Origin: Patescibacteria group bacterium
GTDB taxonomy: Bacteria; Patescibacteriota; Kazan-3B-28
Direction of reading: 5' to 3'
Assembly (NCBI GenBank): GCA_041649135.1
Contig: JBAZNQ010000002.1
Location: forward strand, 41,238-105,237
Length of the DNA: 64,000 bases
Below, piece after piece: positions 4,853 to 47,962 of this stretch. The position numbers and the translations under genes were made by a program. The notes beneath the pieces were generated by a model. That model had not been told where the DNA came from, did not search any database, and was given only the letters and a program-made list of their open reading frames with translations. Within the stretch, counting starts at the first letter, position 1. Each line of letters begins with the position of its first letter.

Positions 4853-5799
4853 TCCATTTTATTTTTGGTGCTGATACCTATCGGGTTAAAGCCCGCCTCA
4901 CTAGTTTGAAGGAGGAGTTTTTAACTACCGCGTCGGATTTTAATTTTCATCATCAATTGGCCGACGAACTTACTCTTGCTGATCTGCCTCAATTGTTTCA
5001 GGGAGCAACTTTACTGGGGGGGAATCGGCTGGTTATTCTAGAAGATATTTTTTCTGCCTCTAGTGAGATCAAAGAAGCTTTGGCAATGAGATTTAAAGCT
5101 GGCTTGCCAGAAGATCTGACTGTGGTAGTCGCATCACATGCCGACTTCGACAAACGGCAGAGCTTGTATAAGTGGCTATCTAAATCTGCCCAAGTTGAAA
5201 TGTTCGAGTTGTTGGCTGGCCAGCCATTATTGGATTACGTCACCAAGTTAACTACTCAACATCAGCTGACTCTGGCACCGATCCAATTACGCCAGCTCAT
5301 TGATCTTGCTGGCAACGATCTTTGGCAATTAGATAACGAACTTGCCAAGCTCGCCGCCTATTCTCGCTCCCATCCCATTACCGACGTAGTCATTAGTGAG
5401 TTAGTCGCCCGCGATCCCCAAGACGACATTTTTGCGATTATGGCAGCCCTAGCTGATCACCAACTGGCTCGTGCCAATCACCTAGTTGCCGATCTAATTC
5501 AGCGCGGCGAAGATCCAATTGGAATTCTGGCCGTCCTAACCTTCCAAGTTCGCACCTTGCTGCGAGTTTCAACTCTCGCCCAGCAACGCAAATCGTCAGC
5601 CGTGATTGTTCAAATCACCGGTTTACATCCCTACGCGGTTACTCGCTCTCTCGAACAAAGCCGGCAGTTTTCATTCTCCCGCTTGGCATCTATCTACCAA
5701 CTACTAGTGAAACTGGATTGGAAAATCAAACAAGGCGACCTCGCTTCCGATGACGCTCTTGATTGGCTAGTGGCTACCCTTGCGGGTGTAGCTACCTAG
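4849..5799 (+). CDS. holA: DNA polymerase III delta subunit
   Basis: 316 aa. N-terminus MIHFIFGADTYRVKARL resembles HolA (IYLLYGED...). 4-nt ATGA overlap with the upstream gene. Confidence 0.6.
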   Translation: MIHFIFGADTYRVKARLTSLKEEFLTTASDFNFHHQLADELTLADLPQLFQGATLLGGNRLVILEDIFSASSEIKEALAMRFKAGLPEDLTVVVASHADFDKRQSLYKWLSKSAQVEMFELLAGQPLLDYVTKLTTQHQLTLAPIQLRQLIDLAGNDLWQLDNELAKLAAYSRSHPITDVVISELVARDPQDDIFAIMAALADHQLARANHLVADLIQRGEDPIGILAVLTFQVRTLLRVSTLAQQRKSSAVIVQITGLHPYAVTRSLEQSRQFSFSRLASIYQLLVKLDWKIKQGDLASDDALDWLVATLAGVAT

Positions 5800-6035
5800 G
5801 CCGACTTTAATTTGCGAGCCAGCCTCGACTTTAGTCTTGCGGCTTTATTGCGATGGATCGTATTCCGACCAGCGGCTTTATCCAACGCCTTTTGGGCAGC
5901 TTTTAAAGTCTCCGCCGTTGGCTGGTCATTGGCTGCCCGCAAAGATGTTTTGACTGCCTTCCGACAATCCAAGTTCATCTTTCGTTTGCGCGCCGAACTT
6001 CGCATCTGTTTTTTGGCTGATTTGATAATTGGCAT
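5796..6035 (-). CDS. rpsT: 30S ribosomal protein S20
   Basis: 79 aa basic protein MPIIKSAKKQMRSSARKRKMN...RNKAARLKSRLARKLK, a classical S20 sequence. Confidence 0.9.
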   Translation of the reverse strand: MPIIKSAKKQMRSSARKRKMNLDCRKAVKTSLRAANDQPTAETLKAAQKALDKAAGRNTIHRNKAARLKSRLARKLKSA

Positions 6036-6251
6036 AACTTTACCTTAATCTTAACATCTCCCAACTTAAGCGTAATTGTGTGAGCTGTAAAGGATTTTTC
6101 TCACCAATCCCCAATTTGACAGCTCGTCTGCTTCGAGGTAAGCTGGCCTATCCGAGTCTCGTACTTGTCCCGTTAGAAATTTAGAAAACGGGCAACCTAG
6201 ATCGGGCTGAATCAGGATAATAGACTATAGCAAGCTAAAATTTCTAACGGG

Positions 6252-7463
6252 ATGGAACCAACCCCCAAACAACAAGCCGTTTCTTTTATCAACCGCGCGC
6301 AGCGGATTTTGGTAGTTCCCGGTCGTCCCGACGCTGATTCAATTGGTTCGGCTTTGGCATTGCAATTAGCGCTTCGGAAACTGAATAAAGAGGTCAGTAT
6401 CACCACTCTTGACCCAATCAATGCGCAATTAAACTTTTTGCCAGAATTAAACACCATCGCCAGTACCCTAACCGGCAGTCAGGATTTTGTCATTTCCCTC
6501 GCTAATGCCGATACCGAACCAGAGAGCTTGAACTACACTTTTGAAAACGGAACTTTAAATATTATCGTTACTCCCAAACACGGCGTTTACTCATCCGAGC
6601 AAGTTAGTTTTAGTCAGGGCGGATATAAATATGACCTGATCCTTACCGTTGATGCCGCCGATTTGACGCAACTGGGCGTAATCTATGAGCAATACCCGGC
6701 CCTCTTCCGCGAAGTGTCAGTGATCAATATCGATCACCATGCCACCAATAGTTATTTTGGCGCAGTCAATTTGGTTGATATGACGGCTACTTCCGCCGGC
6801 GAGATTTTGGTTGGATTGCTTGAGGCTCTCAATGTTGAGATCGATGCTGATATTGCCACCTGTCTGCTGACTGGCATTATTTCTGATACTGGTTCTTTCC
6901 AACACAGCAACACTACTCCAAAATCTTTGACCGTCGCGGCTCAAATGGTTGGCTTTGGTGGCCGTCAGCAAGACATCATTAAGTCATTATTTAAAACCAA
7001 AGACTACAGTACGCTTAAACTCTGGGGTCAGGTTTTGGCCAATCTCGAGTTTGACCCCACTCATCGTTTAGTTTGGGCGACCGCTGGCTATCGCGATATT
7101 GAGGCGGTCGGTGCGACTGCCGAATCCTTCACCGGTCTAATTGATGAGTTAATGACTAGTGTCCCCGGCGCAGAAGTGGTGATGTTGATCACCGAGCGCG
7201 AACCCAAAATAGTCTCGGGCAGTATTCGAACTTCACGGGGGGTTAGCTCGACCGAGATCGCAGAGTTGCTGGGTGGTGGCGGTCATCTTGGTGCAGCCGG
7301 ATTTAGGCTGATGGATATGACTCTTACCGAAGCAGTACCCTTAATTTTGAGTAAAGTTCGTCAGTATCAGATTGATCGGTTGGGACTAAACATCGCTCCT
7401 CCCTCCCCCACTCCTCCAGCAGAAATCGCTCCGGAAGCTCAAAATACTCTTCAGGAGGCTTGA
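6252..7463 (+). CDS. nrnA: DHH/DHHA1 phosphoesterase (NrnA-like bifunctional oligoribonuclease/pAp phosphatase)
   Basis: DHH motif (NIDHHATNSYFG) and DHHA1 motif (GGGGHLGAAGF). Confidence 0.85.
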   Translation: MEPTPKQQAVSFINRAQRILVVPGRPDADSIGSALALQLALRKLNKEVSITTLDPINAQLNFLPELNTIASTLTGSQDFVISLANADTEPESLNYTFENGTLNIIVTPKHGVYSSEQVSFSQGGYKYDLILTVDAADLTQLGVIYEQYPALFREVSVINIDHHATNSYFGAVNLVDMTATSAGEILVGLLEALNVEIDADIATCLLTGIISDTGSFQHSNTTPKSLTVAAQMVGFGGRQQDIIKSLFKTKDYSTLKLWGQVLANLEFDPTHRLVWATAGYRDIEAVGATAESFTGLIDELMTSVPGAEVVMLITEREPKIVSGSIRTSRGVSSTEIAELLGGGGHLGAAGFRLMDMTLTEAVPLILSKVRQYQIDRLGLNIAPPSPTPPAEIAPEAQNTLQEA

Positions 7464-7904: not shown

Positions 7905-10055
7905 ATGTCTCAACAATTTTCTACTCAACTTGGGGATTCCAAGTTGATTCTCGAAACCGGAAAGATCGCTCAACTGGCCAACGGGTCAGTTACTTTGCGG
8001 TCAGGCGACACGGTCGTGTTAGCTACTGCTGTTGTCTCCCCGACTCCCCGCGAAGGGATCGACTTCTTTCCCTTACTCATTGATTTCGAAGAAAAATTTT
8101 ACGCTACCGGCAAGATCTCTGGTAGTCGGTTTATCAAACGGGAAGGTCGGCCTAGTGAGGATGCCATTCTCTCGGCTCGATTAATTGACCGACCATTGCG
8201 CCCCCTCTTCCCCAAAGGTTTCTATAACGATGTTCAAGTTGTGATCACAGTACTGTCAGCCGATTTAGTTAACGATCCCGACATTCTCGGCATCATCGCC
8301 GCTTCCTCTGCCGTTATGCAAACCGGAGTCCCATTCAAGGGCCCAGTCGCCGGTGTGCGAGTTGGTCGGGTTAACGGTCAAATGGTAGCTAACCCAACTT
8401 ATGAACAACGTGAAAGTAGTGATCTCGATTTAGTTATCGCTGGGACTGCCGATGCCGTCATGATGGTGGAAGCCGGCGCGAGCGAAGTTTCCGAAGAGGT
8501 TATGCTACAAGCAATTGAATTTGGCCATCAAGCTATTCAGCCAGCCATCAAGCTTCAACAGGAAATGGCTCAAGCCTTGAGTGTCCAAGCTATTGGGTTT
8601 ACTTCTGCCGAAACCTCGGCCGACCTTAAAACCAAGATCTTTGGCAAGGTTCAGCCGCAATTGCAAGACGTAATTTATCATCCAGAAAAGACGGTTCGCA
8701 ACGCCAAACTGGAAGCTCTTCGTCAAGAAATTTGGAGCGAGTTTGTTAGCGAAGAAAATCCCGAACTGGTAGTGTCAGACATTTTTAATAAAGCTATCAA
8801 TGAAGAGATCCGACGCAATATTTTAGTCGAGGGTCGTCGTCCTGATGGGCGCAAACTCGACCAAATTCGTCCCCTCTCGATTGAAGTCGGTCTCTTACCT
8901 CGGCCGCATGGTTCAGCCCTTTTCACTCGTGGCGAAACCCAAGCTCTTTCCACCGTTACCCTTGGTTCCCTTGATGACGAACAACTTTTGGACACGATGG
9001 AGTTTGAAACCACCAAGCGGTATATGCACCATTACAACTTCCCACCATTTGCTACCGGTGAGGCTAAACCTCTCCGTCAGGCCGGTCGTCGGGAAATTGG
9101 TCATGGGGCTCTTGCCGAACGCGCGCTTTTGCCAGTCATCCCCAACCGCGAAGCCTTCCCTTACACCATTCGAGTAGTCTCGGAAATTATGGCTAGCAAC
9201 GGCAGTAGCTCGATGGCCTCGGTTTGTGGTAGCACCCTATCTCTGATGGATGCTGGTGTACCGATCACCAAACCAGTTGCTGGTGTGGCGATGGGTCTGA
9301 TCGCTGATGGTGCCAACTACAAGATCCTTACCGACATCGCTGGGATCGAAGACTTTAATGGCGATATGGATTTCAAAGTCGCCGGTACCAAAGACGGTAT
9401 TACCGCTCTGCAGATGGACATCAAAGTCGCCGGTATCACGATCGCCGTTATGAAAGATGCCCTGTCCCAAGCCAACGTTGGTCGGATGTTTTTGCTCGGT
9501 AAAATGGCAGAAGTTATTGCCGAACCTCGCAAAGAACTATCTCCCTACGCCCCTCGCGTGATGGTGGTTAAGATACCCCAAGATCGCATTGGTGAAGTTA
9601 TTGGGCCGGGTGGCCGTGTAATTAATGACATTATTGATAAGGCCGGTGGTAAACAAGTTACCAACATTAATATTGAAGAAGACGGCAACGTCTACATTAC
9701 TTCTACTGACGCCAAGCTTGGCGAACAAGCCGCCGATACGATTCGCAATATGATGCGAGAAGTTGAAGTTGGCGAACAATTTACTGGTCGGGTTACTCGC
9801 CTGATGGACTTTGGCGCCTTTGTTGAGATCCTCCCCGGTAAGGAAGGTTTAGTTCACATCTCTGAACTCGCCAACCAACGGGTGGAAAAAGTAGAAGATG
9901 TGGTGAAGGTCGGTGATCCGTTAGAAGTTATCGTCACGGAAATTGATAACCTCAATCGGATTAACCTATCCCACAAAGCGGTGCTTAATGGCGGTAAGAT
10001 CACTCCCCGTCCGCCTCGTCCAGAACGAAATGACCATCGCCCCCCTCGTCGCTAA
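7905..10055 (+). CDS. pnp: Polynucleotide phosphorylase (PNPase), with Arg/Pro-rich C-terminal tail
   Basis: Two RNase PH domains (FETTKRYMHHYNFPPFATGE), then KH and S1 domains. The C-terminus GGKITPRPPRPERNDHRPPRR is an unusual basic tail. Confidence 0.97.
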   Translation: MSQQFSTQLGDSKLILETGKIAQLANGSVTLRSGDTVVLATAVVSPTPREGIDFFPLLIDFEEKFYATGKISGSRFIKREGRPSEDAILSARLIDRPLRPLFPKGFYNDVQVVITVLSADLVNDPDILGIIAASSAVMQTGVPFKGPVAGVRVGRVNGQMVANPTYEQRESSDLDLVIAGTADAVMMVEAGASEVSEEVMLQAIEFGHQAIQPAIKLQQEMAQALSVQAIGFTSAETSADLKTKIFGKVQPQLQDVIYHPEKTVRNAKLEALRQEIWSEFVSEENPELVVSDIFNKAINEEIRRNILVEGRRPDGRKLDQIRPLSIEVGLLPRPHGSALFTRGETQALSTVTLGSLDDEQLLDTMEFETTKRYMHHYNFPPFATGEAKPLRQAGRREIGHGALAERALLPVIPNREAFPYTIRVVSEIMASNGSSSMASVCGSTLSLMDAGVPITKPVAGVAMGLIADGANYKILTDIAGIEDFNGDMDFKVAGTKDGITALQMDIKVAGITIAVMKDALSQANVGRMFLLGKMAEVIAEPRKELSPYAPRVMVVKIPQDRIGEVIGPGGRVINDIIDKAGGKQVTNINIEEDGNVYITSTDAKLGEQAADTIRNMMREVEVGEQFTGRVTRLMDFGAFVEILPGKEGLVHISELANQRVEKVEDVVKVGDPLEVIVTEIDNLNRINLSHKAVLNGGKITPRPPRPERNDHRPPRR

Positions 10056-21637: not shown

Positions 21638-22512
21638 TTCACCAATTGTTTAAGCCGATGATAAATCTTTGCCCACTCACTCAAACTTAAGTCCTGTGGC
21701 CTCATTTTTGGGTCAACCCCGATTTCCTCCAACAATTCTTGAACCGCTGTATCATCCAACCATAACCCGCCAGAGAGTGAATTGTGGAGTTGTTTCCGTT
21801 TCTCTCCGAAGCCAGCTTTTACGATTCTGAAAAATAGTTTGATGTTGTCGATGTCGTAAGGCGGTTGTTTAAACGGTCGGATCCGAATAATTGCCGAAGT
21901 TACTTCTGGCTTCGGCCAGAAAGAGGTTCTTGGGACCAAACTAATCAATTCCGGCTTGCCAAAAAACTGCACCGAAATGCCCAACAAGCTCAACTCTCCC
22001 GGTTCGGCAACAATTCGCTCGGCCACTTCCTTCTGCACCATTACCACGATTAAATCTGGTGGCAGATCAGTCTCCAAAAATAACTTCAGGATGGCCGAAG
22101 TGATGTAGTAAGGTAGATTAGAAACCAACTTATAGCTGGTCTTCCCCTGCTTCACTTTTGCCCAAGTCTTGTATCGGTCATGGATATACCGGCTGTCCAG
22201 TTTTAAAATATTTGATGGCAAAATATCCAAATTAGAATATCCGCTTCCCAACGCCTTGAGGATCTCTAGCACTTTCTTGTCAGTTTCTACGGCCAGCACC
22301 CGACCAGCTAAATCGGCCATCGGGAGAGTCATCACTCCAAACCCCGGTCCGATTTCTACCACAAAGTCTCCCTTTGACAATTCCGCCGCCGCTAGCATTT
22401 TGTCCAATATCTCCGGATCGATCAAAAAATGCTGACCCAAATTTTTCTGGGCTGACACATTGTAATAGGTCAGCAAACTCTTAATTGTTTTGAGATCAGT
22501 TAGGTCGATCAT
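21634..22512 (-). CDS. rsmA: 16S rRNA (adenine1518/1519-N6)-dimethyltransferase
   Basis: LGQHFLIDPEILDKM and an SAM-binding VVEIGPGFG motif; 4-nt overlap with rsmI. Confidence 0.92.
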   Translation of the reverse strand: MIDLTDLKTIKSLLTYYNVSAQKNLGQHFLIDPEILDKMLAAAELSKGDFVVEIGPGFGVMTLPMADLAGRVLAVETDKKVLEILKALGSGYSNLDILPSNILKLDSRYIHDRYKTWAKVKQGKTSYKLVSNLPYYITSAILKLFLETDLPPDLIVVMVQKEVAERIVAEPGELSLLGISVQFFGKPELISLVPRTSFWPKPEVTSAIIRIRPFKQPPYDIDNIKLFFRIVKAGFGEKRKQLHNSLSGGLWLDDTAVQELLEEIGVDPKMRPQDLSLSEWAKIYHRLKQLVK

Positions 22513-23214: not shown

Positions 23215-25316
23215 TTACGTAGCTTTAATTTAGCGAGCTCTGCCGCCAATGTCTTAATCCCCGATTTCACAAATGCTACTGTCACAATATCGGCCGTTCG
23301 GCTAATCACCACCCCCTGACCAAATTGACTATGGTCGACTTTTGCTCCCGGCTTCAGACTATCCGAATAATGGATCTTCACCACTGTCGGTTGGTGAGTG
23401 TGAGCTGAAATTGTCTCCAACAATTCCGGTGGCAGATCGCTAATAAACCGTGAAGGCTGGTTTAACTGCAAACTGCCATAAATCAATCGTTCTCGAGCAT
23501 GAATCAGATAAACTTTCTTGCGGGCTCGAGTGATTCCGACATAGCACAATCGCCGTTCCTCCTCTAGTTCTTGACTATCAAATAAACTTCGACTGTGTGG
23601 GAAAAGGTTCTCCTCCATGCCGGCAATAAATACGTAGTCAAATTCTAGCCCCTTCGCCGAATGGAGTGTCATTAAAGTAATCGCATCCTCCGTTGGCTGA
23701 TAGTTGTCAATGTCGGCAATTAAAGTTACCTCCTCCAAAAATATTTCCAACGCTTCGGCTGTTTTGAGGTGGTCGTATTTTTCCATTACCGATTTCAACT
23801 CGTAGATGTTTTCTATTCGTGTTTGTCCCTCAATCCCAGTATCGGCCAACATCTTTTTGTAGCCGGTTTCCACCAAAATCACGTCCAACAATTTACTCAA
23901 ACTTACCGTCTGGCTTTTACTGACTAATCGTTTCAGAAGTTTGCCGAAAGTCTGCAGAACTGGCTGTAGGTTTGAATCTTGGAGCAGCAATTCCCCTGCA
24001 CTTATGCCGGTTTCAGCTACCTTCGCCATAAAGTCTTCCCACGTCTTTTTCCCAATCCCCCGCACCGGCACATTGATAATTCTCGCTAGTGCCAAAGTAT
24101 TGTTGGGGTTAGCCAGTACTCCTAAATACGCCAAGATGTCTTTTATCTCTTTCCGTTCGTAGAATCGGACTCCCCCAATTACCCGATATGGCAATCCAGC
24201 CCGTAGCAAAGATTCTTCAATACTGCGCGACTGGGCGTTGGTTCGATACAGGACCACCATGTCATTCAACTGAATTCGATGCTTGGCTCTTAATCGTTCC
24301 GCCTCCATTACAATAAACTCACCCTCTGCTTTTTCGGTGTTCGCTTCAAATATCGTCACCAACTCCCCTGCCGCTTGTTCGGTCCACAGCTTCTTTTCAC
24401 TCCGGTTCCGGTTATGGACGATCACCGAATGGGCGGCATCTAAAATATTTTGGCTCGAGCGGTAATTCTGCTCCAGTTTAATTACCATCGCTTTGGGGTA
24501 GTCACGATGAAAATTCAAAATGTTCTGGTAGTTCGCCCCTCGCCACGAATAAATCGACTGCCAGTCATCTCCTACCACAAACAAATTCTGATGCTTCTTT
24601 GCCAGTAACTTCACCAGTTCATATTGGGCTGTGTTGGTATCTTGATATTCATCTACCAAGATATATTCAAACTGTTTTTGGTATTTCTCCAATATCTTCG
24701 GTTCTTGGCGGAAAAGTTCCACCGTCTTCATAATTAAATCATCAAAATCTAACGACTGATTTTTGCGTAAGATATTTTGATAAGCTTCGTACACTCGGGC
24801 TACCGTCTGTTGAAAACTTCCCTGTGCTATTCCCCGATAACCAGCCACATCCACTAGCTCATTTTTCGCGCTGGAAATGTGTGACCGGACTGCCTCGGGA
24901 TGAATGTGTTTGGTATCAATCGATAATTCTTCCATGGCTCTTTTCACGGCTGTCAATTGGTCGTCGCCATCCAAAATCGTGAACTTCTGGCTGTAACCGA
25001 AATGTTTCGCTTCTATTCTCAACAGACGGGCGCAGAAGGAATGAAAGGTACTGATGAAAGTTGGTCGGGTGCTTCTTAAACCTAATAATCTTTGGACCCG
25101 CTCGCTCATTTCCCCTGCCGCTTTGTTGGTGAAAGTAATTGCTAAGATATTCGACAATGGGACTTTATGTTCTTGGTGCAGGTATGCAATCCGATGAGTT
25201 AACGCTTTAGTCTTTCCCGAACCAGCCCCCGCCAACACTAAAACTGGTCCTTTGATGACCTTAGTTGCTCTTACCTGTTCATTGTTTAATCCCGCCAAAA
25301 TGTCTTGCATACCCAC
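23211..25316 (-). CDS. pcrA: ATP-dependent DNA helicase PcrA/UvrD (SF1)
   Basis: Walker A AGAGSGKT, motifs FTNKAAGEM, VDEYQDTN and TLHSAKGLEFDYVF. Confidence 0.95.
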   Translation of the reverse strand: MGMQDILAGLNNEQVRATKVIKGPVLVLAGAGSGKTKALTHRIAYLHQEHKVPLSNILAITFTNKAAGEMSERVQRLLGLRSTRPTFISTFHSFCARLLRIEAKHFGYSQKFTILDGDDQLTAVKRAMEELSIDTKHIHPEAVRSHISSAKNELVDVAGYRGIAQGSFQQTVARVYEAYQNILRKNQSLDFDDLIMKTVELFRQEPKILEKYQKQFEYILVDEYQDTNTAQYELVKLLAKKHQNLFVVGDDWQSIYSWRGANYQNILNFHRDYPKAMVIKLEQNYRSSQNILDAAHSVIVHNRNRSEKKLWTEQAAGELVTIFEANTEKAEGEFIVMEAERLRAKHRIQLNDMVVLYRTNAQSRSIEESLLRAGLPYRVIGGVRFYERKEIKDILAYLGVLANPNNTLALARIINVPVRGIGKKTWEDFMAKVAETGISAGELLLQDSNLQPVLQTFGKLLKRLVSKSQTVSLSKLLDVILVETGYKKMLADTGIEGQTRIENIYELKSVMEKYDHLKTAEALEIFLEEVTLIADIDNYQPTEDAITLMTLHSAKGLEFDYVFIAGMEENLFPHSRSLFDSQELEEERRLCYVGITRARKKVYLIHARERLIYGSLQLNQPSRFISDLPPELLETISAHTHQPTVVKIHYSDSLKPGAKVDHSQFGQGVVISRTADIVTVAFVKSGIKTLAAELAKLKLRK

Positions 25317-25568: not shown

Positions 25569-25862
25569 ATGGGTTCAGGCGAAATGTTTCTGCTGGCTCC
25601 CCAATCAGGCAAAATCATTCAGTTTCTGGTGGAGGTTGGGCAGGACGTAGCAGAGGGGCAGACAGTCTTCGTCTTGGAGTATATGAAGATGCAGAATGAC
25701 ATCCCCTCCCCCAAGACCGGTCAGGTAGCCAAAATCTACTTCAAGCCGGAGGATATCGTCCAGCGGGACCAGCCAGTACTATTACTAACTGGTATAACCG
25801 AGGACTTGCCCCAATCCGAGACCCAGCCCATGTCAACCGACGACGAGGTATACCCCTATTAG
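25569..25862 (+). CDS. Biotin/lipoyl attachment (biotin carboxyl carrier-like) domain protein
   Basis: VLEYMKMQNDIPSPKTGQVAKIYFKPEDIVQRDQPVLLL closely resembles the BCCP core EAMKMMN...G-V..I.V..G..V....PL. Confidence 0.6.
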   Translation: MGSGEMFLLAPQSGKIIQFLVEVGQDVAEGQTVFVLEYMKMQNDIPSPKTGQVAKIYFKPEDIVQRDQPVLLLTGITEDLPQSETQPMSTDDEVYPY

Positions 25863-25883
25863 GACGCCTCGTCGTCCTTTTTC
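25861..25883 (+). terminator. Rho-independent terminator after the biotinyl-domain gene
   Basis: AGGACG-cctcgt-CGTCCT followed by TTTTT, overlapping the stop codon. Confidence 0.6.
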
Positions 25884-25984
25884 GGTATACTAAGAGTACT
25901 TGCCCCGTTAGAAATCTAAAAAACGGGCAGGACCGAGAGAGCAAAATAACAAGTTGGGCATAGCAAGCTAAGATTTCTAACAGG

Positions 25985-26728
25985 ATGTCAGGACACTCCA
26001 AGTGGTCTACTATCAAGCGGAAAAAAGGCGCCCTCGATGCCAAGAAGGGTGCCGAATTTACTAAGCTTGCCCGTTTAATCGAGGTTGCGGCCAAGTCGGG
26101 CGCCGATCCCAACATGAACTTCCGGCTTAAATTGGCTATTCAAAAAGCTAAGTCTGCCAATATGCCTTCTGCCAACATCGACAAAGCTGTCCGCAAAGGC
26201 GCTGGGCTAGATAAAGACAAAAGTAGCATTGAAGAAATTATGTACGAAGGTCTCGGACCGGGCAACGTGGCCGTCATGATCCAAGCCCTGACTGACAACA
26301 AAAACCGAACCGTCTCTGACTTGCGTAATCTTTTTACTAAAGCCGGTGGCAGTTTGGGAAACGCTGGTTCAGTCGCTTGGCAATTTGTCAGCAAAGGGAT
26401 TTTAATTGTTCCCCAAGGTGACCCCGACCTAGAATTAAAAGCTATTGAAGCCGGTGTGGAAGATATTCAGGATCAGGGCGACATTTGGGAGCTTCACACT
26501 CAACCTGCCCAACTTAATCAAGTTAAACAGGCGCTCATCACCGCTGGTGTTGCTATCTCGGAAGATAAGTTGGCTTTAGTTCCCACTAATTTAGTTAAAA
26601 TTACTGACCCAACTTTAGCCCAAAGGGTCATTCAATTTATGGAAACGCTCGAAGATAACGAAGACGTGGCAGAAGTTTTCAGCAATTTTGATATCGACGA
26701 CAGTGTTCTCTCCCAAATAGTAGACTAG
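25985..26728 (+). CDS. yebC: YebC/PmpR-family DNA-binding transcriptional regulator
   Basis: MSGHSKWSTIKRKKGALDAKKG...NKNRTVSDLR is the canonical YebC sequence. Confidence 0.95.
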   Translation: MSGHSKWSTIKRKKGALDAKKGAEFTKLARLIEVAAKSGADPNMNFRLKLAIQKAKSANMPSANIDKAVRKGAGLDKDKSSIEEIMYEGLGPGNVAVMIQALTDNKNRTVSDLRNLFTKAGGSLGNAGSVAWQFVSKGILIVPQGDPDLELKAIEAGVEDIQDQGDIWELHTQPAQLNQVKQALITAGVAISEDKLALVPTNLVKITDPTLAQRVIQFMETLEDNEDVAEVFSNFDIDDSVLSQIVD

Positions 26729-26929
26729 GTGCAACTGACGACCACACGTCATCCTGGTTCCCCCCTCGTCATTCCCGCGCAGGCGGGAATCCAGAAAAGA
26801 ATATTTTCTTTTTCTGTCTGGATCCTCGGGTCAAGGAACGTCTGACGTTCCAAGCCCGAGGATGACAAAATAAAATTGTGCCATAGGCAACGCCGCAATT
26901 ATTAACTATTCACTTTTAACTTTTCACTC

Positions 26930-32320: not shown

Positions 32321-32432
32321 ACTAGTAAAAGCCGCTAGTAACGGCAAATGATGAATGCCAAATAACCAATGATCGAATTTCCGGCTTTGCCGGAATACCA
32401 GAACTTTTCACTTTTAACTTTTCACTTTCCTC

Positions 32433-33452
32433 ATGCATTTAATTCCCATCCCTTGGACACTTCTTTTAACGGCCTTTGGCATTGCGTTTTTAATTACTCT
32501 CTTGGCAACGCCTTGGGTGACTAGTTTGGCTAAGCGTTACCGACTATTCGATTTGCCATCAGCTCGTCGGGTTCACACTAGTCCCATCCCCCGCATCGGC
32601 GGGCTAGCTTTATTTTTGGGATTTTTTATTGCGCTACTTGTTGTCTTCGGTTTCGACCCGCGTATTCTTGGTCTCGCGCTCTGCGCTATTTTAATTTTCG
32701 GGCTGGGTTTGTTGGATGATATTTATAGTCTTCCGCCAATCCTCAAATTTACTGGTCAGCTGGTAGTTGCCTCACTCGCAGTCTTTTTTGGGATTACTAT
32801 CGGCAACATTACCAATCCTTTCGGCGGGACAATTTTACTCTCCCCCATTTTTGACGTCAGTTTAACGATCGTGTGGATGCTATTGATGATCAATACCGTT
32901 AATTTTTTGGATGGATTGGATGGGCTAGCTACCGGCGTTACCGCTATCGTTTCCGTCGTGTTGGTAGTGTTAAGTTTATTTACGATTGTGGATCAACCCC
33001 AAACTGCTGCTCTTGCCGCGATGATTTGCGGCACGGCTCTGGGCTTCCTTTATTACAATTGGCACCCAGCTAAAATTTTTATGGGTGATGGAGGTTCTCA
33101 TTTGCTTGGCTTTATGTTGGCGGCTATTTCGATCATTAGTGGCGGGAAAATTGCCACGGCTGTTTTGGCTCTCGGTCTACCGGTCTTGGATTTGGTCTGG
33201 GCAATTGTCCGTCGGTTGAAAACCGGCAAAGCGCCATGGTCAGCCGACAAACTCCATCTCCACCACTTATTACTCTCCGCCGGCCTCGGCCAACGGACAG
33301 TGGTAACTATTTTTTATGTCTTTACTCTTGGCTTTGGTACAGTTGCGCTTCTTTCCGGAACTTGGAGCAAGTTGGTTGGTTTATTAATTGTCGGTTTGCT
33401 AATGGCGGGAATTGTGAGAGTAGCACTGTATTTTCGTCCGCAACAGAGGTAA
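32433..33452 (+). CDS. Polyprenyl-phosphate sugar-1-phosphate transferase (MraY/WecA family)
   Basis: About 10 TM helices, DD motif (LLDDIYSL) and family signature NTVNFLDGLDGLATG. Confidence 0.85.
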   Translation: MHLIPIPWTLLLTAFGIAFLITLLATPWVTSLAKRYRLFDLPSARRVHTSPIPRIGGLALFLGFFIALLVVFGFDPRILGLALCAILIFGLGLLDDIYSLPPILKFTGQLVVASLAVFFGITIGNITNPFGGTILLSPIFDVSLTIVWMLLMINTVNFLDGLDGLATGVTAIVSVVLVVLSLFTIVDQPQTAALAAMICGTALGFLYYNWHPAKIFMGDGGSHLLGFMLAAISIISGGKIATAVLALGLPVLDLVWAIVRRLKTGKAPWSADKLHLHHLLLSAGLGQRTVVTIFYVFTLGFGTVALLSGTWSKLVGLLIVGLLMAGIVRVALYFRPQQR

Positions 33453-34796: not shown

Positions 34797-34947
34797 CCAA
34801 GTGTGTTTTTGGTTTAGTCAAATTTAAAAAATAAAGTTACTCTTGTATTGTTTTTTAAAAAGTGTTCTTCTATAATTTAATTGACAAGTTGTTGCGCGTT
34901 ACCTTCGCATAATAACTTTGTTCGAACATTGTTATATCAGTTAAGTC

Positions 34948-35169
34948 ATGGGGGTTCTCATGCCAGTGCGCAGAAGAAGAAAGGCTGCTGCTAAACCAGC
35001 CGCCAAGAAAACTGTTCGTCGTCGTAAGGCGGCGAAGAAGACAACAGTCAAAAAGACTGTCCGTCGTCGCAAAGCGAAGAAGACAACAGCCAAGAAAAAG
35101 GTTGTCCGTCGTCGCAAAGCGAAGAAGACCACAACCAAGAAACGGGTTGTGCATCGTCGCAAAAAATAG
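34948..35169 (+). CDS. Small Lys/Arg-rich tandem-repeat protein (histone H1/Hc1-like nucleoid protein candidate)
   Basis: 73 aa with ~17-aa repeats KKT(T/V)xKK(T/K)VVRRRKAKK encoded by ~51-nt DNA repeats. The real start may be the second ATG at 34960 (MPVRRRRK), which is preceded by a GGGGG SD-like tract. Confidence 0.55.
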   Translation: MGVLMPVRRRRKAAAKPAAKKTVRRRKAAKKTTVKKTVRRRKAKKTTAKKKVVRRRKAKKTTTKKRVVHRRKK

Positions 35170-35186: not shown

Positions 35187-35216
35187 AAAAGACACTTCCT
35201 GGGGGGAGTGTCTTTT
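35187..35216. terminator. Bidirectional terminator hairpin between the convergent basic-protein gene and the iscS-like gene
   Basis: AAAAGACACT-tcctgggggg-AGTGTCTTTT, with a T-run on both strands. Confidence 0.55.
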
Positions 35217-35277
35217 ATATGGCTATATAAAAGTAACGCAGGGAGTGTCTTTTATATGGCTATATAAAAGTAACGCG
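35204..35277. repeat. Two tandem 37-bp direct repeats, each containing the palindrome CTTTTATAT-GGCT-ATATAAAAG
   Basis: GGGAGTGTCTTTTATATGGCTATATAAAAGTAACGC(A/G) occurs twice back to back; the first unit overlaps the terminator's 3' arm. Confidence 0.8.
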
Positions 35278-35287
35278 AGGGTGTTCT

Positions 35288-36430
35288 TTAATTTGCGGCT
35301 AGTTGTTTTAGCTCTTTGGCCAGTTTCACCAAATCTGGTTTTTTCGTGAGATAGCCAAGTGTAATTCGTACACTTGAGTTAGCTCTGGTTGCGTTCAATC
35401 CCATTGCCAACAACACATACGAAGGTTCCACACTGCCAGCCGCACAAGCCGATGCCGCCGATACCGCTATCCCCCGCCGATCCAACCCGATCACCAACTC
35501 ATCACTAGTTTTCCCCTTCACACTAAAATTAAGATTATTCACTAGTCGGCTGGTCAAAGAACCATTAAATTCAATTTGCGGGAGTTTTCTTAATTCTTTA
35601 ATTAGATATTTTTGTAGTTCACTCAAGCGCTTAGTTTCTGCCGGTTTTTGTCGTTGCACCATTTCCAAAGCAGTCGCCAATCCAACGATTCCGGGCACGT
35701 TTAAACTGCCAGACCGCAAACCTCGTTCCTGCCCACCGCCATATATAATTGGTTGAAGTGGTACGCCATCCCGAACATATAACAGTCCAACTCCCTTCGG
35801 CCCGCCGAGTTTGTGGCCGGACAATGTTAGCATGTCGGTATGTAAAATTTGAGTGTCTAATGATAGCAGATTCCCAGCCTGCACCGCATCAGTATGAAAA
35901 TAGATCGGCTGTTTCCGTTTCTGGTTTTCTCGCTTTAACATCAACCCGATTTCTCGAATCGGCTGGATTGTTCCCACTTCGTTGTTGGCATACATGATTG
36001 ACACCAAAAAAGTTTTTGGAGTTATCGCCTTGGTGATCTGCTCTACTGATACTATCCCCTCCTGATTTGGTTTGATGTAAGTTACTTTCAAGCCTGTTTG
36101 TCCCAACGCTCGGCAAGTTTCTAGCGCCGCCTTGTGTTCGATCGTAGTCGTAATGATATGACCATCGGGATAATTTTTTGCCAACCCGTAGATCGCTAAA
36201 TTATCCGCCTCGGTGCCGGAACTAGTAAAAATTATTTCCAATGGTTTGCAGTTTAAAATCTCCGCAACTTTTCGACGAGCCTCATCGGTTGCTTTTTGGG
36301 CTTGCTGGCCAAACCGATGGATGCTCGCAGCATTCCCAAATCTCTCCGAAAAGTACGGTTTCATCACCTTCACGACTTCCGGCCGAACCGGAGCCGTTGC
36401 GGCATAGTCTAAATAAATTCGTTTTTCCAT
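35288..36430 (-). CDS. iscS: Cysteine desulfurase (IscS/NifS family, PLP-dependent)
   Basis: MEKRIYLDYAATAPV N-terminus, PLP-lysine motif SGHKLGGPKGVGLLYV, class V aminotransferase fold. Confidence 0.92.
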   Translation of the reverse strand: MEKRIYLDYAATAPVRPEVVKVMKPYFSERFGNAASIHRFGQQAQKATDEARRKVAEILNCKPLEIIFTSSGTEADNLAIYGLAKNYPDGHIITTTIEHKAALETCRALGQTGLKVTYIKPNQEGIVSVEQITKAITPKTFLVSIMYANNEVGTIQPIREIGLMLKRENQKRKQPIYFHTDAVQAGNLLSLDTQILHTDMLTLSGHKLGGPKGVGLLYVRDGVPLQPIIYGGGQERGLRSGSLNVPGIVGLATALEMVQRQKPAETKRLSELQKYLIKELRKLPQIEFNGSLTSRLVNNLNFSVKGKTSDELVIGLDRRGIAVSAASACAAGSVEPSYVLLAMGLNATRANSSVRITLGYLTKKPDLVKLAKELKQLAAN

Positions 36431-36925
36431 GTACCCTACCTATAACCATATCTTAATCCCAAGCCCATCACGGGGCGCCACCATCGTAACCGAAGAGGCT
36501 GTCTATAGAAAGGGAGGCCCCTAGAAACTAGGGGCCGAGGTGGTAGCAGAGTTGTCGGACAATAGTCCGAGCTCTACCATTACAATCTCCGTCGATGAGA
36601 CGGAGGTGGTGCTCTGGGAGAAGACCCCCAGCTGGACTAGGACTGCGATAAAGAAACACAGCAGTCCCGTCACAATTCCTACGGGAATCCAGCTACCCAC
36701 AGTACACCTCCAAGGTGCAACTCTGTGAACCCACAGGTGAGGAACTGATCGAGATTGACCAATTAGGTCATTATAGCAAAAAACTCGCTCCCAGTCAATG
36801 TTTTTCCCATTTTCCCTCCTATGAGAGTTATCACCCAGATCCACCCAACTCACCTATTTTCAGGTATATTGATAAATGTTCTCCCCAACTTTTAACTATT
36901 CACTTTTAACTCTTCACTTTCTTCT

Positions 36926-43879: not shown

Positions 43880-44290
43880 TTATGGGTGGCCGTTTTGAAT
43901 TTTACACCTATTCTTCATGATGCTATGAAACGTGAGGTTTCCAGTCCCTACTTTTCTGAGAATAACAGTTACAGTAGTTTGCTGTTTACCGACCACCTCC
44001 CTCAATGCCCAGTAGTGAACATATTTACCTATATTTTTCGAATACTCGTTGCTGTAATGGTAAATCTTGCTGGCATTTTTGATTACAGGTATTGCCAAGG
44101 GCAATAGACCCATTTTGTACATCTGTTCCCTAATATGGCGAATCGTACCAGTCCCGTCATACCGCATATGATAAAAACCTTTAGAGTTGAAGACCACGCT
44201 TGACTGTAAGCAGGGGCAATAGACCTTTCCGATAGTCTTGTACCAAGCCTCTCGTTTATTCCTTAACTCTAAATAATTCTCTTTTGACAT
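43880..44290 (-). CDS. Hypothetical protein
   Basis: 136 aa ORF on the opposite strand within the AT-rich block; no motif recognised. Confidence 0.4.
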   Translation of the reverse strand: MSKENYLELRNKREAWYKTIGKVYCPCLQSSVVFNSKGFYHMRYDGTGTIRHIREQMYKMGLLPLAIPVIKNASKIYHYSNEYSKNIGKYVHYWALREVVGKQQTTVTVILRKVGTGNLTFHSIMKNRCKIQNGHP

Positions 44291-45393: not shown

Positions 45394-45467
45394 GCGGGTA
45401 TAGTTTAATGGTAGAATATCTCTTTTCCAAAGAGAATATACGGGTTCGATTCCCGTTACCCGCTCCA
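45394..45467 (+). tRNA. tRNA-Gly (anticodon UCC), CCA encoded
   Basis: Manual fold: acceptor GCGGGTA/TACCCGC, D-loop AATGGTAG, anticodon stem TCTCT/AGAGA with loop TTTCCAA (U33, anticodon TCC, A37), T-arm ACGGG-TTCGATT-CCCGT, discriminator T, then CCA. Confidence 0.85.
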
Positions 45468-46967
45468 GTCTGAACACAAGGCGCGCTCCGCGAGGAGCGC
45501 GTAAGGCGGAATCCAGTCCCAGAGCACTTTCCGAGAATTCAGAATCAGGTTCGAGCCAACCTCCGCGACAAAGTCGCGTAGTTCCAAGAGATCACCACCC
45601 GCAGCCGGGAGATTGCTCTCCCTGACTGCGTTAATCAGCTCCCGAAGAGGTTCGAGCCAGTACATCACCCCCTGACGGGCGATCTTGCCGAATTGGGTCT
45701 CAAGAGCTATCTTCGCATTCACCAACTTTCGCTTGCGGGCGGCATACTCCGCCCGATCAATTTCTCCATCTACATGCAAGTCATTCAATCTGCGCAGCTT
45801 CGCTGCGATCCCGGCAATTTCAATTTCAAGCTTGAGCGCTGGCGCATTCTCATTGGTTACGGCTTCAGCTTCCCAGTCGTCTAGCTGGCGGAGCATCGGG
45901 AAAACCCACTCCTCCGATTCTGGTAAGGCGATAGTCTTAAGCCGTTCCCACATCCTTGCTAATAAATCCTCTTCGCGCATAAACGGCTGGGAACATTTTA
46001 AAGTCCCGCCTTTTTTGGTGCAGCGATAGTAGCGCCAGACATGGTGGTTGCCGTTCTGCTGCGTCCTGACGTGTGTCTCGGCGGTAATCGAAGCTCCGCA
46101 TTCCCCACAGCGTATCAGCCCTAAGAATGGAAACTCTCTCTTGTAATGCGCTTGGGCTCTTCCTCGCTGAGCAAATACACGTTGCACCTTGTCCCAAAGT
46201 GCTTTGCTTACAACCGGTTCATGGCAACCCCTGTAAAGCTCGCCTTTCCACAAAATCGCCCCGTAGTAGAACGGATCAACCAGTATGCCCGACATGCTGG
46301 CTTTAGGGATCAAGGTCTCGTAGTAGCCCTTAAGCCCGTGTCCGTACATTACTTTCGCTAAGGCAAGCATTGAGTACTGGCCGGTGGCGTACAGCTCAAA
46401 CATCCGCTTGATTAACGGAAATCTGACAGGATCAGGAATAATCTCATGTGTTTTAGGATGATTGAGGTAGCCTAGTTTCGCTTTGCCGGGGTAGATGCCC
46501 TTCGCTAACTTAGATGCTAGACCACGGTGGACTAGCTCGCTCAGGTTATCAGTGTAGCGCTTGCTTTCGGCGAAAAAGAACGCCAGCATGAACTTGTCAG
46601 TACTCGTATTTTTGAAGGTAGAAGTAGCAGTCACAATCTGGTGCAATTGACCGGAATCGAGAAGCTCAATGATCCGCGCTCCATCCATAGCATTGCGGGC
46701 GATTCGTGAAGCATCATAAGCTAGCAGCGCGTTGGCTTTGCCCTGGCTGATGGAAGCAAGAACAGCATCAAACTGTGGCCTTCCTGGTTTCCTCGCACTC
46801 ATCGATTCCTCATACTGCTCTTCAAGACGCATTTGAAGGCTGCTAGCAGCTTTCAAAGCCCATTCGCGCTGGTCCGGGATGCTTTGTACTTGTCGCTCGT
46901 CGCTTTCAGTAGATTTACGGTAGTAAGCGACATATCTCAATTTGGTGTGCTGTAGTTTATTGCTCAT
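45456..46967 (-). CDS. Large serine recombinase (integrase), C-terminus overlapping the tRNA-Gly 3' end
   Basis: Resolvase/invertase N-domain with the catalytic serine region YYRKSTESDERQVQSIPDQ, a recombinase domain and a zinc ribbon (CGECGASI...C..C). The stop codon lies inside the tRNA acceptor stem. Confidence 0.9.
   Translation of the reverse strand: MSNKLQHTKLRYVAYYRKSTESDERQVQSIPDQREWALKAASSLQMRLEEQYEESMSARKPGRPQFDAVLASISQGKANALLAYDASRIARNAMDGARIIELLDSGQLHQIVTATSTFKNTSTDKFMLAFFFAESKRYTDNLSELVHRGLASKLAKGIYPGKAKLGYLNHPKTHEIIPDPVRFPLIKRMFELYATGQYSMLALAKVMYGHGLKGYYETLIPKASMSGILVDPFYYGAILWKGELYRGCHEPVVSKALWDKVQRVFAQRGRAQAHYKREFPFLGLIRCGECGASITAETHVRTQQNGNHHVWRYYRCTKKGGTLKCSQPFMREEDLLARMWERLKTIALPESEEWVFPMLRQLDDWEAEAVTNENAPALKLEIEIAGIAAKLRRLNDLHVDGEIDRAEYAARKRKLVNAKIALETQFGKIARQGVMYWLEPLRELINAVRESNLPAAGGDLLELRDFVAEVGSNLILNSRKVLWDWIPPYALLAERALCSDWSG
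45461..45539. repeat. Left copy of a perfect 79-bp inverted repeat (pairs with 47884..47962)
   Basis: CGCTCCAGTCTGAACACAAGGCGCGCTCCGCGAGGAGCGCGTAAGGCGGAATCCAGTCCCAGAGCACTTTCCGAGAATT is the exact reverse complement of 47884..47962. Its first 7 nt are the tRNA-Gly 3' end. Confidence 0.85.
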
Positions 46968-47830: not shown

Positions 47831-47883
47831 AACTCACACATTATCCGCCGGACACAAGGGCGGCGCAATCATTCCCTTCGCTC

Positions 47884-47962
47884 AATTCTCGGAAAGTGCT
47901 CTGGGACTGGATTCCGCCTTACGCGCTCCTCGCGGAGCGCGCCTTGTGTTCAGACTGGAGCG
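47884..47962. repeat. Right copy of the perfect 79-bp inverted repeat
   Basis: Exact reverse complement of 45461..45539 (checked base by base). Confidence 0.85.

Follow-up and report, generated by a model that had tools for sequence, protein, structure and literature searches.

In a 64,000-nucleotide stretch of contig JBAZNQ010000002.1 from a Patescibacteria group bacterium of the Kazan-3B-28 lineage (hereafter, the window), we found that an element of about 88 nucleotides (nt) lies directly before the start codons of two genes, an nrnA-like phosphoesterase gene and yebC. The element is short and non-coding, has terminal inverted repeats and is present in multiple copies, with empty sites in relatives at yebC, nrnA and rplI. 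We favour the reading that it represents an undescribed mobile family, resembling miniature inverted-repeat transposable elements (MITEs), that acts as a portable leader at start codons, and consider this reading probable overall. Its parts carry different weight: the identity of the element as a mobile start-codon leader cassette is highly probable, a selected RNA-level role in cis has about an even chance, and a specific two-state gating of translation, which comes from modelled folds, is doubtful.

Related inverted-repeat elements abut nrnA and yebC

The left-arm 12-mer CCCGTTAGAAAT occurs exactly at window positions 6169–6180 and 25904–25915, and its reverse complement occurs exactly at 6240–6251 and with one mismatch at 25973–25984. 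A given 12-mer is expected, by arithmetic, about 0.008 times in 128 kb of two-strand sequence, so three exact copies and one single-mismatch copy, all at these two places, are far beyond chance; the remaining matches with two or fewer mismatches in the window are at background level. Both coordinates of the original prediction, which had described this 12-mer with its exact reverse complement next to the nrnA ATG, are correct. Exact matching also bore out its second copy before the yebC ATG, with one mismatch and a shared internal block, ATAGCAAGCTAA, which is identical in the two copies. The local pairing partner that it proposed, AACGGG, is present at 6187–6192 rather than at 6190–6195, three bases further left than described. 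The left block common to the copies, GTACTTG[T/C]CCCGTTAGAAAT[T/C]TA[G/A]AAAACGGGCA, is 34 nt long with 91% identity, longer than was first noted.

Each copy has terminal inverted repeats of 13–16 bp, and its right end adjoins the ATG of a real gene (Table 1). The end-to-end pairing of copy 1 comprises 16 bp (6167–6182 with 6238–6253) and includes the A and U of the start codon, as A6252 and U6253 of the nrnA-like gene pair with T6168 and G6167 in the long-range helix. In copy 2, pairing runs through arm position 14 (14 pairs including the terminal pyrimidine/purine pair) with two C.A mismatches, the second of which is the terminal C25903/A25985 pair. One compensatory difference, T-A to C-G at arm position 14, separates the window copies.

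The element precedes unrelated genes in many lineages

We scanned one representative genome per species for the pattern CCCGTTAGAAA-N6-AAACGGG and found 74 matching loci, against about 17 expected by arithmetic. About 56 of them are in Patescibacteria (the candidate phyla radiation, CPR) and about 10 in Planctomycetota, and the remainder resemble chance matches inside genes of unrelated bacteria. CPR labels with the element include Nomurabacteria, Paceibacterota, Saccharibacteria, Kazan, Colwellbacteria and Staskawiczbacteria. One Paceibacterota metagenome-assembled genome holds eight matching loci and one from Nomurabacteria holds six; mismatch-tolerant scans revealed further, more diverged copies near pattern matches.

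The ends of the family read [Y]CCCGTTAGAAAT ... ATTTCTAA(A)CGGG[R], where Y is a pyrimidine and R a purine, and a sub-terminal AACGGG forms a local hairpin with the left end. Ends and local hairpin are common to a short form (55–66 nt), a mid form (81–84 nt, the window type) and a long form (about 100–110 nt, with a bulged A in the right arm), the cores of which are unrelated. Total element length is 55–133 nt and the inter-arm distance about 30–110 nt, with no open reading frame (ORF) of its own.

All CPR copies with a recognisable right arm (56 of 56) have a single orientation and lie directly before an ATG (53 copies) or GTG (3 copies) that opens an ORF. The downstream genes are unrelated and include dnaN, infB, greA, rplI, rplL, murG, hpf, fmt and clpB, among others. 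Ten downstream ORFs were run against Pfam (DnaN, H+-pyrophosphatase, IF-2, GreA, L7/L12, L9, MurG, HPF, Fmt and ClpB), and most of the profiles align within the first few residues, those of DnaN, L9, MurG and HPF from residue 1–3, indicating that the start codons after these copies are true. The Planctomycetota copies are of a 57-nt form, and none is at a start codon. The leader is thus not one specific to nrnA and yebC, since the motif scan of representative genomes places it before dozens of unrelated genes in many CPR lineages. A half-element at L041:4762–4830 has the left arm and local hairpin, lacks the right arm, and lies about 40 nt upstream of an ORF that looks GreA-like, judging from its first residues only. 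Decay or truncation of a full copy may have produced this half-element.

We found no Rfam match in the window at the gathering score, and none at E <= 10 in 6040–6300. Full-text literature searches with the arm sequences returned unrelated papers only, none on bacterial repeat elements, and searches for MITEs or leaderless genes in Patescibacteria returned nothing relevant. A viral contig scan and phage BLAST gave no match to the element.

Orthologous sites are empty in close relatives

Orthologous sites were gathered by protein searches and contig look-ups; a metagenome scan for YebC had given only three close relatives. The relatives keep the gene order uvrD (minus strand), yebC, ruvC, ruvA. 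Four of them (L081, L082, L106 and L109; YebC 77–83% identical) have no element at yebC. With the junction marked by a slash, their sites read tgcTATACTaggtat/ATGTCAGG in L106, TATACTaagccc/GTGTCAGG in L109 and TATACTgggtat/ATG in L081 and L082, for comparison with TATACTaagagt/ACTTGC...CAGG/ATGTCAGG in the window. The empty sites therefore consist of TATACT, 6 nt and ATG or GTG, which is the spacing of a leaderless gene. The yebC site is occupied in L108 (79% identical) and L046.

The nrnA site is empty in all five relatives (71–77% identical). TTGACA-N17-TAAGCT is kept before nrnA in L112, L114, L115 and L116, followed by 12–16 nt without a Shine-Dalgarno sequence and then by ATGGAACC. L115, with an empty nrnA site, comes from the same genome as L108, in which yebC is occupied. 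Similarly, the L9 gene is occupied in L043 and empty in L117 (78% identical). These empty sites in close relatives indicate that each window gene gained the element separately and that it is no inherited regulatory leader; we found no vertical conservation at orthologous sites, which are empty in relatives with 71–83% identical proteins. It is to the start codon, rather than to the transcription start, that the junction is fixed.

Other repeats occupy comparable positions. In L122 (1893–2000), a near-perfect palindrome other than the element, CCCTGCCTTCTGgATTCATATGAATtCAGAAGGCAGGG, occupies the slot in front of the L9 gene with its roughly 38 nt, so that this intergenic slot is colonised by different repeat elements in different lineages. 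In the relative L111, yebC is preceded by a different CT-rich repeat, TCTCTATTCTCTAATCTCTATT (9890–10000).

Duplicated flanks and rebuilt start codons as marks of probable mobility

In 43 copies, here called class I, we compared the four bases that precede the left terminal base with the four that follow the right one. Both flanks have the same sequence in 35 of these copies, usually TGAA or TGGA, which we read as a 4-bp target-site duplication, and a third-position G in the left flank is accompanied by one in the right flank (7/0/1/35; Fisher p = 2.5e-7). Identical 4-bp flanks also occur in five of eight Planctomycetota copies, where their sequence varies (CGAG, CTCG, TTTA, CCCG), versus 7% with permuted partners. 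The two terminal bases of a copy also covary: T..A accompanies ATG (40 copies) and C..G accompanies GTG (3 copies), so that the element itself supplies, as its final base, the A or G that opens the start codon.

Other CPR copies have non-ATG duplications. One lies in a promoter region (L015:6355, TTGA), one inside codons 2–3 of a 350-amino-acid ORF that is presumably murB-like, judging from its N-terminal residues only (L054:1306, TAAA), and one inside codons 4–5 of a secreted-protein gene (L042:1851, TAAG). In the latter two, the interrupted frame continues through the insertion and is restored by an ATG that lies in frame inside the element. A Planctomycete copy, L027:6355–6465, holds a nested mini-element of 36–38 nt, CCCCGTTAGAGAC...GTCTCTAACGGGG, so existing copies have themselves been targets of further insertion.

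Both window copies belong to a second class, class II, which comprises 13 pattern matches (the window copies and 11 others) and a few more in mismatch-tolerant scans. The class II insertion point is the same, directly before, or just after, the A of the start codon, with a one-A ambiguity at the junction. Among long-form copies, those of class II form a lineage apart, recognisable by diagnostic bases such as a frequent AATGGG in the right arm, and hence have spread carrying ACTTG. In several copies ACUUG lengthens the local hairpin by 3–4 pairs, and this may be the reason that ACTTG was retained; its origin is not explained thereby. Insertion of an IS200/IS605- or IS91-type element beside a fixed CTTG target was ruled out, because the empty sites have no CTTG. 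We found no decayed duplication, longer inverted repeat or shifted boundary that fits the ACTTG flank, and pairing of ACUUG with CAAGU inside yebC is due to chance, as the L046 copy lacks it.

Alternative folds and signs of constraint on the RNA

The minimum-energy RNA fold of the window copies is the end-to-end helix. Computed energies are −25.4 kcal/mol for this fold versus −17.5 kcal/mol with the local hairpin in the nrnA copy, and −23.8 versus −20.6 kcal/mol in the yebC copy; the local hairpin itself contributes −8.7 and −12.3 kcal/mol, respectively. The two folds are mutually exclusive. In the end-to-end one, the first two bases of the AUG are hidden and only about 4 nt stay unpaired at the 5′ end. 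Computed equilibrium probabilities of being unpaired are 0.02, 0.07 and 0.15 for the three bases of the nrnA AUG. The shared leader with alternative pairings in the original prediction thus holds as a cassette between promoter and start codon, with exclusive folds and AUG occlusion, but not as a leader of two genes, and an RNA switch of the kind it envisaged is plausible on these models.

The consensus fold of 33 long-form copies likewise has an end-to-end helix, again covering the first two bases of the AUG, and also an interior hairpin; it is 97% paired versus 29–55% with slid partners. The covariance check that had been suggested gave a mixed result. Three pairs in the interior hairpin are compensated, and doubly changed cells reached the observed number in 1 of 500 shuffles; the arms hardly vary, since the search pattern fixed them. 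U.G pairs are retained in 25–32 of the 33 long-form sequences and would become A.C mismatches on the opposite strand, and the arms in gene orientation hold 23 G.U versus 8 A.C. One copy, L074:320, changes all three hexamers together (CCTGTT, AACAGG, AATAGG).

The element is also conserved beyond synonymous sites. L108 and L046 share 85 of 88 element positions and only 86 of 122 fourfold sites in yebC, and in six class I orthologous pairs element identity is 82–92% versus 42–74% at fourfold sites. Together, the conserved G.U pairs and above-synonymous conservation appear to reflect selection as sense-strand RNA. Selection, or else a directional mechanism, is also required to explain the strict orientation (56 of 56).

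A proposed mechanism and its weaknesses

We propose that a native promoter transcribes the inserted element as the whole 5′ untranslated region. The likely nrnA promoter is assigned from consensus and conservation, and yebC transcription likely starts at A25898, the first base of the element, judging from the spacing to the −10 box. Across the family, 28 of 72 copies have a TAnnnT hexamer 6–8 nt ahead of the first flank base, versus about 3–4 per other offset. The local 5′ hairpin would be transcribed first, leaving the A/U-rich right arm and the AUG free, and the more stable end-to-end helix would then bury the A and U of the AUG. Competition between these folds in cis could set translation initiation, and probably 5′-end stability, for genes without a Shine-Dalgarno sequence. 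Class I copies retain a 5′-terminal AUG and a short upstream ORF through the left arm, the translation of which could unmask the real start.

A bolder version, to which we give a low probability, is that a start-codon-targeting transposable element rebuilds the codon with its terminal base and so turns leaderless mRNAs into leadered, structure-gated ones across the superphylum. The 5′-terminal AUG of class I would load ribosomes in the leaderless mode, and translation of the short upstream ORF (MNPVRNLQNG...) would unmask the true AUG, or ribosomes would reach it by shunting over the folded element. If true, translational control in CPR bacteria would have a mobile layer that spreads horizontally.

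Several points weigh against the portable-leader reading. The left flank of class II is always ACTTG[T/C], with target-site duplications in 0 of 13 copies, so that the defining mark of mobility is missing for this class and its mode of spread is unexplained. No transposase-bearing full-length element and no arm pairs 0.5–3 kb apart were found among the collected loci. The transcription starts are inferred from −10 spacing only, with a hexamer upstream in the 28 of 72 copies mentioned above, and both folds are computed ones. Of the 23 arm G.U pairs, 15 are one variant that marks a subfamily, and because the search pattern fixed the left arm, covariation there is under-sampled. Finally, function is not the only way to account for the high conservation: copies that spread recently, or that were homogenised with one another, could be just as alike.

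Alternative explanations

One possible explanation for the junction with the start codon is that the element is a portable promoter at the DNA level. A −10-like hexamer over the right arm would start transcription 2–5 nt before the ATG and yield a near-leaderless mRNA, and the inverted repeats would serve only transposition. The hexamer (TAAAAT, TAAGAT or TATGAT) overlaps the first two right-arm bases and ends 10–11 nt before the ATG. At this exact position TAnnnT is present in 35 of 72 CPR copies, versus 4.7% of element-interior hexamers, and an A occupies hexamer position 2 in 51 of 72; the hexamer is retained despite the unrelated short, mid and long cores. Host genes were leaderless or nearly so before insertion, and insertion sequences are well known to carry outward-facing promoters at their ends. 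However, the enrichment is overstated, because the arm fixes the last two hexamer bases and the genomes are A+T-rich, and copies within one form share ancestry and are not independent. The window copies lack a recognisable −35 box or TGn, and a consensus scan gave no plus-strand promoter there. The conserved G.U pairs and whole-element conservation fit an RNA role better. We regard the portable promoter as a serious alternative, if an unlikely one.

The element might instead be a purely selfish MITE, its start-codon position reflecting target preference and tolerance with no role in expression. Target-site duplications, presence/absence polymorphism and multi-copy families agree with this, as do the Planctomycete copies, which are never at start codons. 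By contrast, the uniform orientation (56 of 56) and the exact start-codon junction, although ATG and TGAA occur everywhere in these genomes, speak against it. Both coding-sequence insertions are rescued by an in-frame ATG, and conservation exceeds the synonymous level, core included. These observations make a purely selfish element quite unlikely.

The original prediction suggested a cis-regulatory RNA switch. As a regulon leader, the element would be a conserved sensor of a ligand, a protein or temperature by which a set of genes is switched jointly. Two exclusive folds, one of which occludes the AUG, a hairpin loop (AGAAAU) complementary to the right arm and sequence conservation across very distant CPR lineages would suit this explanation, but there is no Rfam match, the genes have no common function and the core needed for a binding pocket is not conserved between forms. 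Occupancy varies among close relatives and, within one genome, between nrnA (empty in L115) and yebC (occupied in L108). With unrelated genes, empty orthologous nrnA and yebC sites in close relatives and target-site duplications in most copies, we consider a regulon leader highly unlikely.

Paired operator sites for a DNA-binding regulator, the other suggestion made from the window, seem extremely improbable: each element does hold three copies of one hexamer (CCCGTT/AACGGG), conserved across phyla, but the fixed half-site spacing of a two-site operator is absent, with elements of 55–133 nt and a variable arm distance arguing against it, single copies with compensatory changes (CCTGTT/AACAGG/AATAGG; AGAGAT/ATCTCT) occur beside canonical copies in the same genome, and target-site duplications are left unexplained. 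Two further candidates were rejected. Integron attC sites have the core-site consensus RYYYAAC ... GTTRRRY, and the order here is GTTAGAA ... TTCTAAC on both strands; an intrinsic terminator would have a T-run after the 5′ hairpin, and there is none on either strand.

Annotated features and other repeats in the window

Table 1 Features around the two element copies in the window
Feature	Position	Strand	Class or basis
rpsT, divergent, upstream of copy 1	5796–6035	−	
Likely native nrnA promoter: TTGACA 6116–6121, 17-nt spacer, TAAGCT 6139–6144	6116–6144	+	Consensus and conservation
Original short nrnA leader, 18 nt, between TAAGCT and copy 1	6145–6162	+	
Element copy 1	6163–6251	+	Class II, mid-length form; family membership and sequence
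Copy 1 ACTTGT flank	6163–6168	+	
Copy 1 left arm (T)CCCGTTAGAAATTT	6168–6182	+	
Copy 1 local hairpin partner AACGGG	6187–6192	+	
Copy 1 variable core	6193–6226	+	
Copy 1 conserved sub-terminal block ATAGCAAGCTAA	6227–6238	+	
Copy 1 −10-like TAAAAT	6236–6241	+	
Copy 1 right arm AAATTTCTAACGGG	6238–6251	+	
DHH/DHHA1 phosphoesterase, nrnA-like	6252–7463	+	Pfam DHH, DHHA1
Biotin/lipoyl-domain gene upstream of copy 2	25569–25862		
Terminator-like hairpin and T-run, end of upstream biotin/lipoyl-domain gene	25861–25885	+	
Likely native yebC −10 box TATACT (25886–25891) and 6-nt spacer	25886–25897	+	Matches empty orthologous sites
Element copy 2	25898–25984	+	Class II
Copy 2 ACTTGC flank	25898–25903	+	
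Copy 2 left arm (C)CCCGTTAGAAATCT	25903–25917	+	
Copy 2 AACGGG	25922–25927	+	
Copy 2 block ATAGCAAGCTAA	25960–25971	+	
Copy 2 −10-like TAAGAT	25969–25974	+	
Copy 2 right arm AGATTTCTAACAGG	25971–25984	+	One internal C.A mismatch
yebC (TACO1/YebC family)	25985–26728	+	Pfam; first gene of yebC-ruvC-ruvA cluster

Several other window genes, among them uvrD/pcrA at 25316 (minus strand) and those at 44290 (minus) and 59084 (plus), lack a Shine-Dalgarno sequence and carry a −10-like box 6–8 nt ahead of the start codon (TATACTggtctgtATG and CATAATggagtcgtATG are examples), which points to leaderless genes being common in this genome. Clear GGAGG-type sites are present at other genes in the window.

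A second shared leader without a Shine-Dalgarno sequence consists of the pyrimidine-rich unit TTCACTTTTAAC in two to three tandem copies at 26893–26928, 32391–32426 and 36883–36918 (plus strand). The units end 1–7 nt before the ATG of ruvC, of a 339-amino-acid ORF (32433–33452) and of a 570-amino-acid gene. The minus strand has a related CT-rich stretch ahead of the gene starting at 22512.

Two 82-nt inverted repeats (45461–45542 and 47881–47962) are 99% complementary, lie 2338 nt apart and enclose minus-strand ORFs of 503 and 286 amino acids. The left one overlaps the 3′ end of a tRNA gene (45394–45464), and the segment between them looks like an integrated or invertible one beside the tRNA. 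At 35204–35277, two tandem 37-nt units (97% identical), each with the palindrome CTTTTATATGGCTATATAAAAG, lie between minus-strand ORFs at 34870–35154 and 35288–36430.

Significance and comparison with known systems

CPR bacteria make up a large share of bacterial diversity, and almost nothing is known of their transcription and translation initiation; many of their genes appear leaderless. Under the portable-leader reading, one mobile cassette has remodelled, time after time, the 5′ ends of genes with housekeeping roles in replication, translation (factors and ribosomal proteins) and cell-wall synthesis, and the inserted sequence appears to be under selection as RNA. Common upstream motifs in CPR genomes should accordingly not be taken for regulons, and gene callers can misplace starts at element sites. 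For genetic tools in cultivable Saccharibacteria, the element offers a ready-made leader, portable by nature, that might also serve as a promoter. If start-codon targeting were mechanistic rather than selected, it would be a new kind of transposon target choice.

Some resemblances concern expression at the 5′ end. ROSE and fourU thermometers and riboswitch expression platforms share with the element alternative pairings, one of which buries the initiation codon, whereas the element is mobile and has no conserved sensor domain, coherent gene set or Shine-Dalgarno sequence to mask. The approximately 4 unpaired 5′ nt in the end-to-end fold recall the geometry by which ompA-type 5′ stem-loops protect from 5′-end-dependent decay, a resemblance only. 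As in the bypass elements of phage T4 gene 60 and the 'byp' elements of Magnusiomyces mitochondria, matched codons (AUG...AUG/GUG) flank a compact, structured, mobile insert in class I. By contrast, the insert here lies before the ORF and not inside it, the window copies have no upstream AUG, and there is no evidence of ribosome hopping.

Other likenesses are to small repeats. RUP, BOX, ERIC, REP/REPIN and Rickettsia palindromic elements are also small, with inverted repeats, many copies and presence/absence polymorphism, and Rickettsia palindromic elements survive inside coding sequence, as L042:1851 and L054:1306 do here. To our knowledge, none of them is regularly placed in the interval from transcription start to first codon of leaderless genes. 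Among the collected loci we identified no transposase partner, of RAYT type or otherwise.

By analogy, the nearest known systems are bacterial MITEs transcribed together with genes, in particular the Correia elements (CREE/NEMIS) of Neisseria, which are short, non-coding, multi-copy, strain-polymorphic and gene-adjacent and have terminal inverted repeats. Like the family described here, they are polymorphic inverted-repeat elements next to genes; their ends pair in the co-transcribed mRNA, and they can supply promoter elements. Their sequence is unrelated, and they duplicate TA and have repeats of about 26 bp, in contrast to the 4-bp duplications of varied sequence here. Nor are Correia elements tied to the start codon, with no rebuilding of it and no strict orientation, and their host is Neisseria instead of CPR bacteria and Planctomycetota. 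The family thus differs from Correia-type MITEs in sequence, in duplication length, in a host range that spans two unrelated phyla and in its exact tie to a start codon that it rebuilds.

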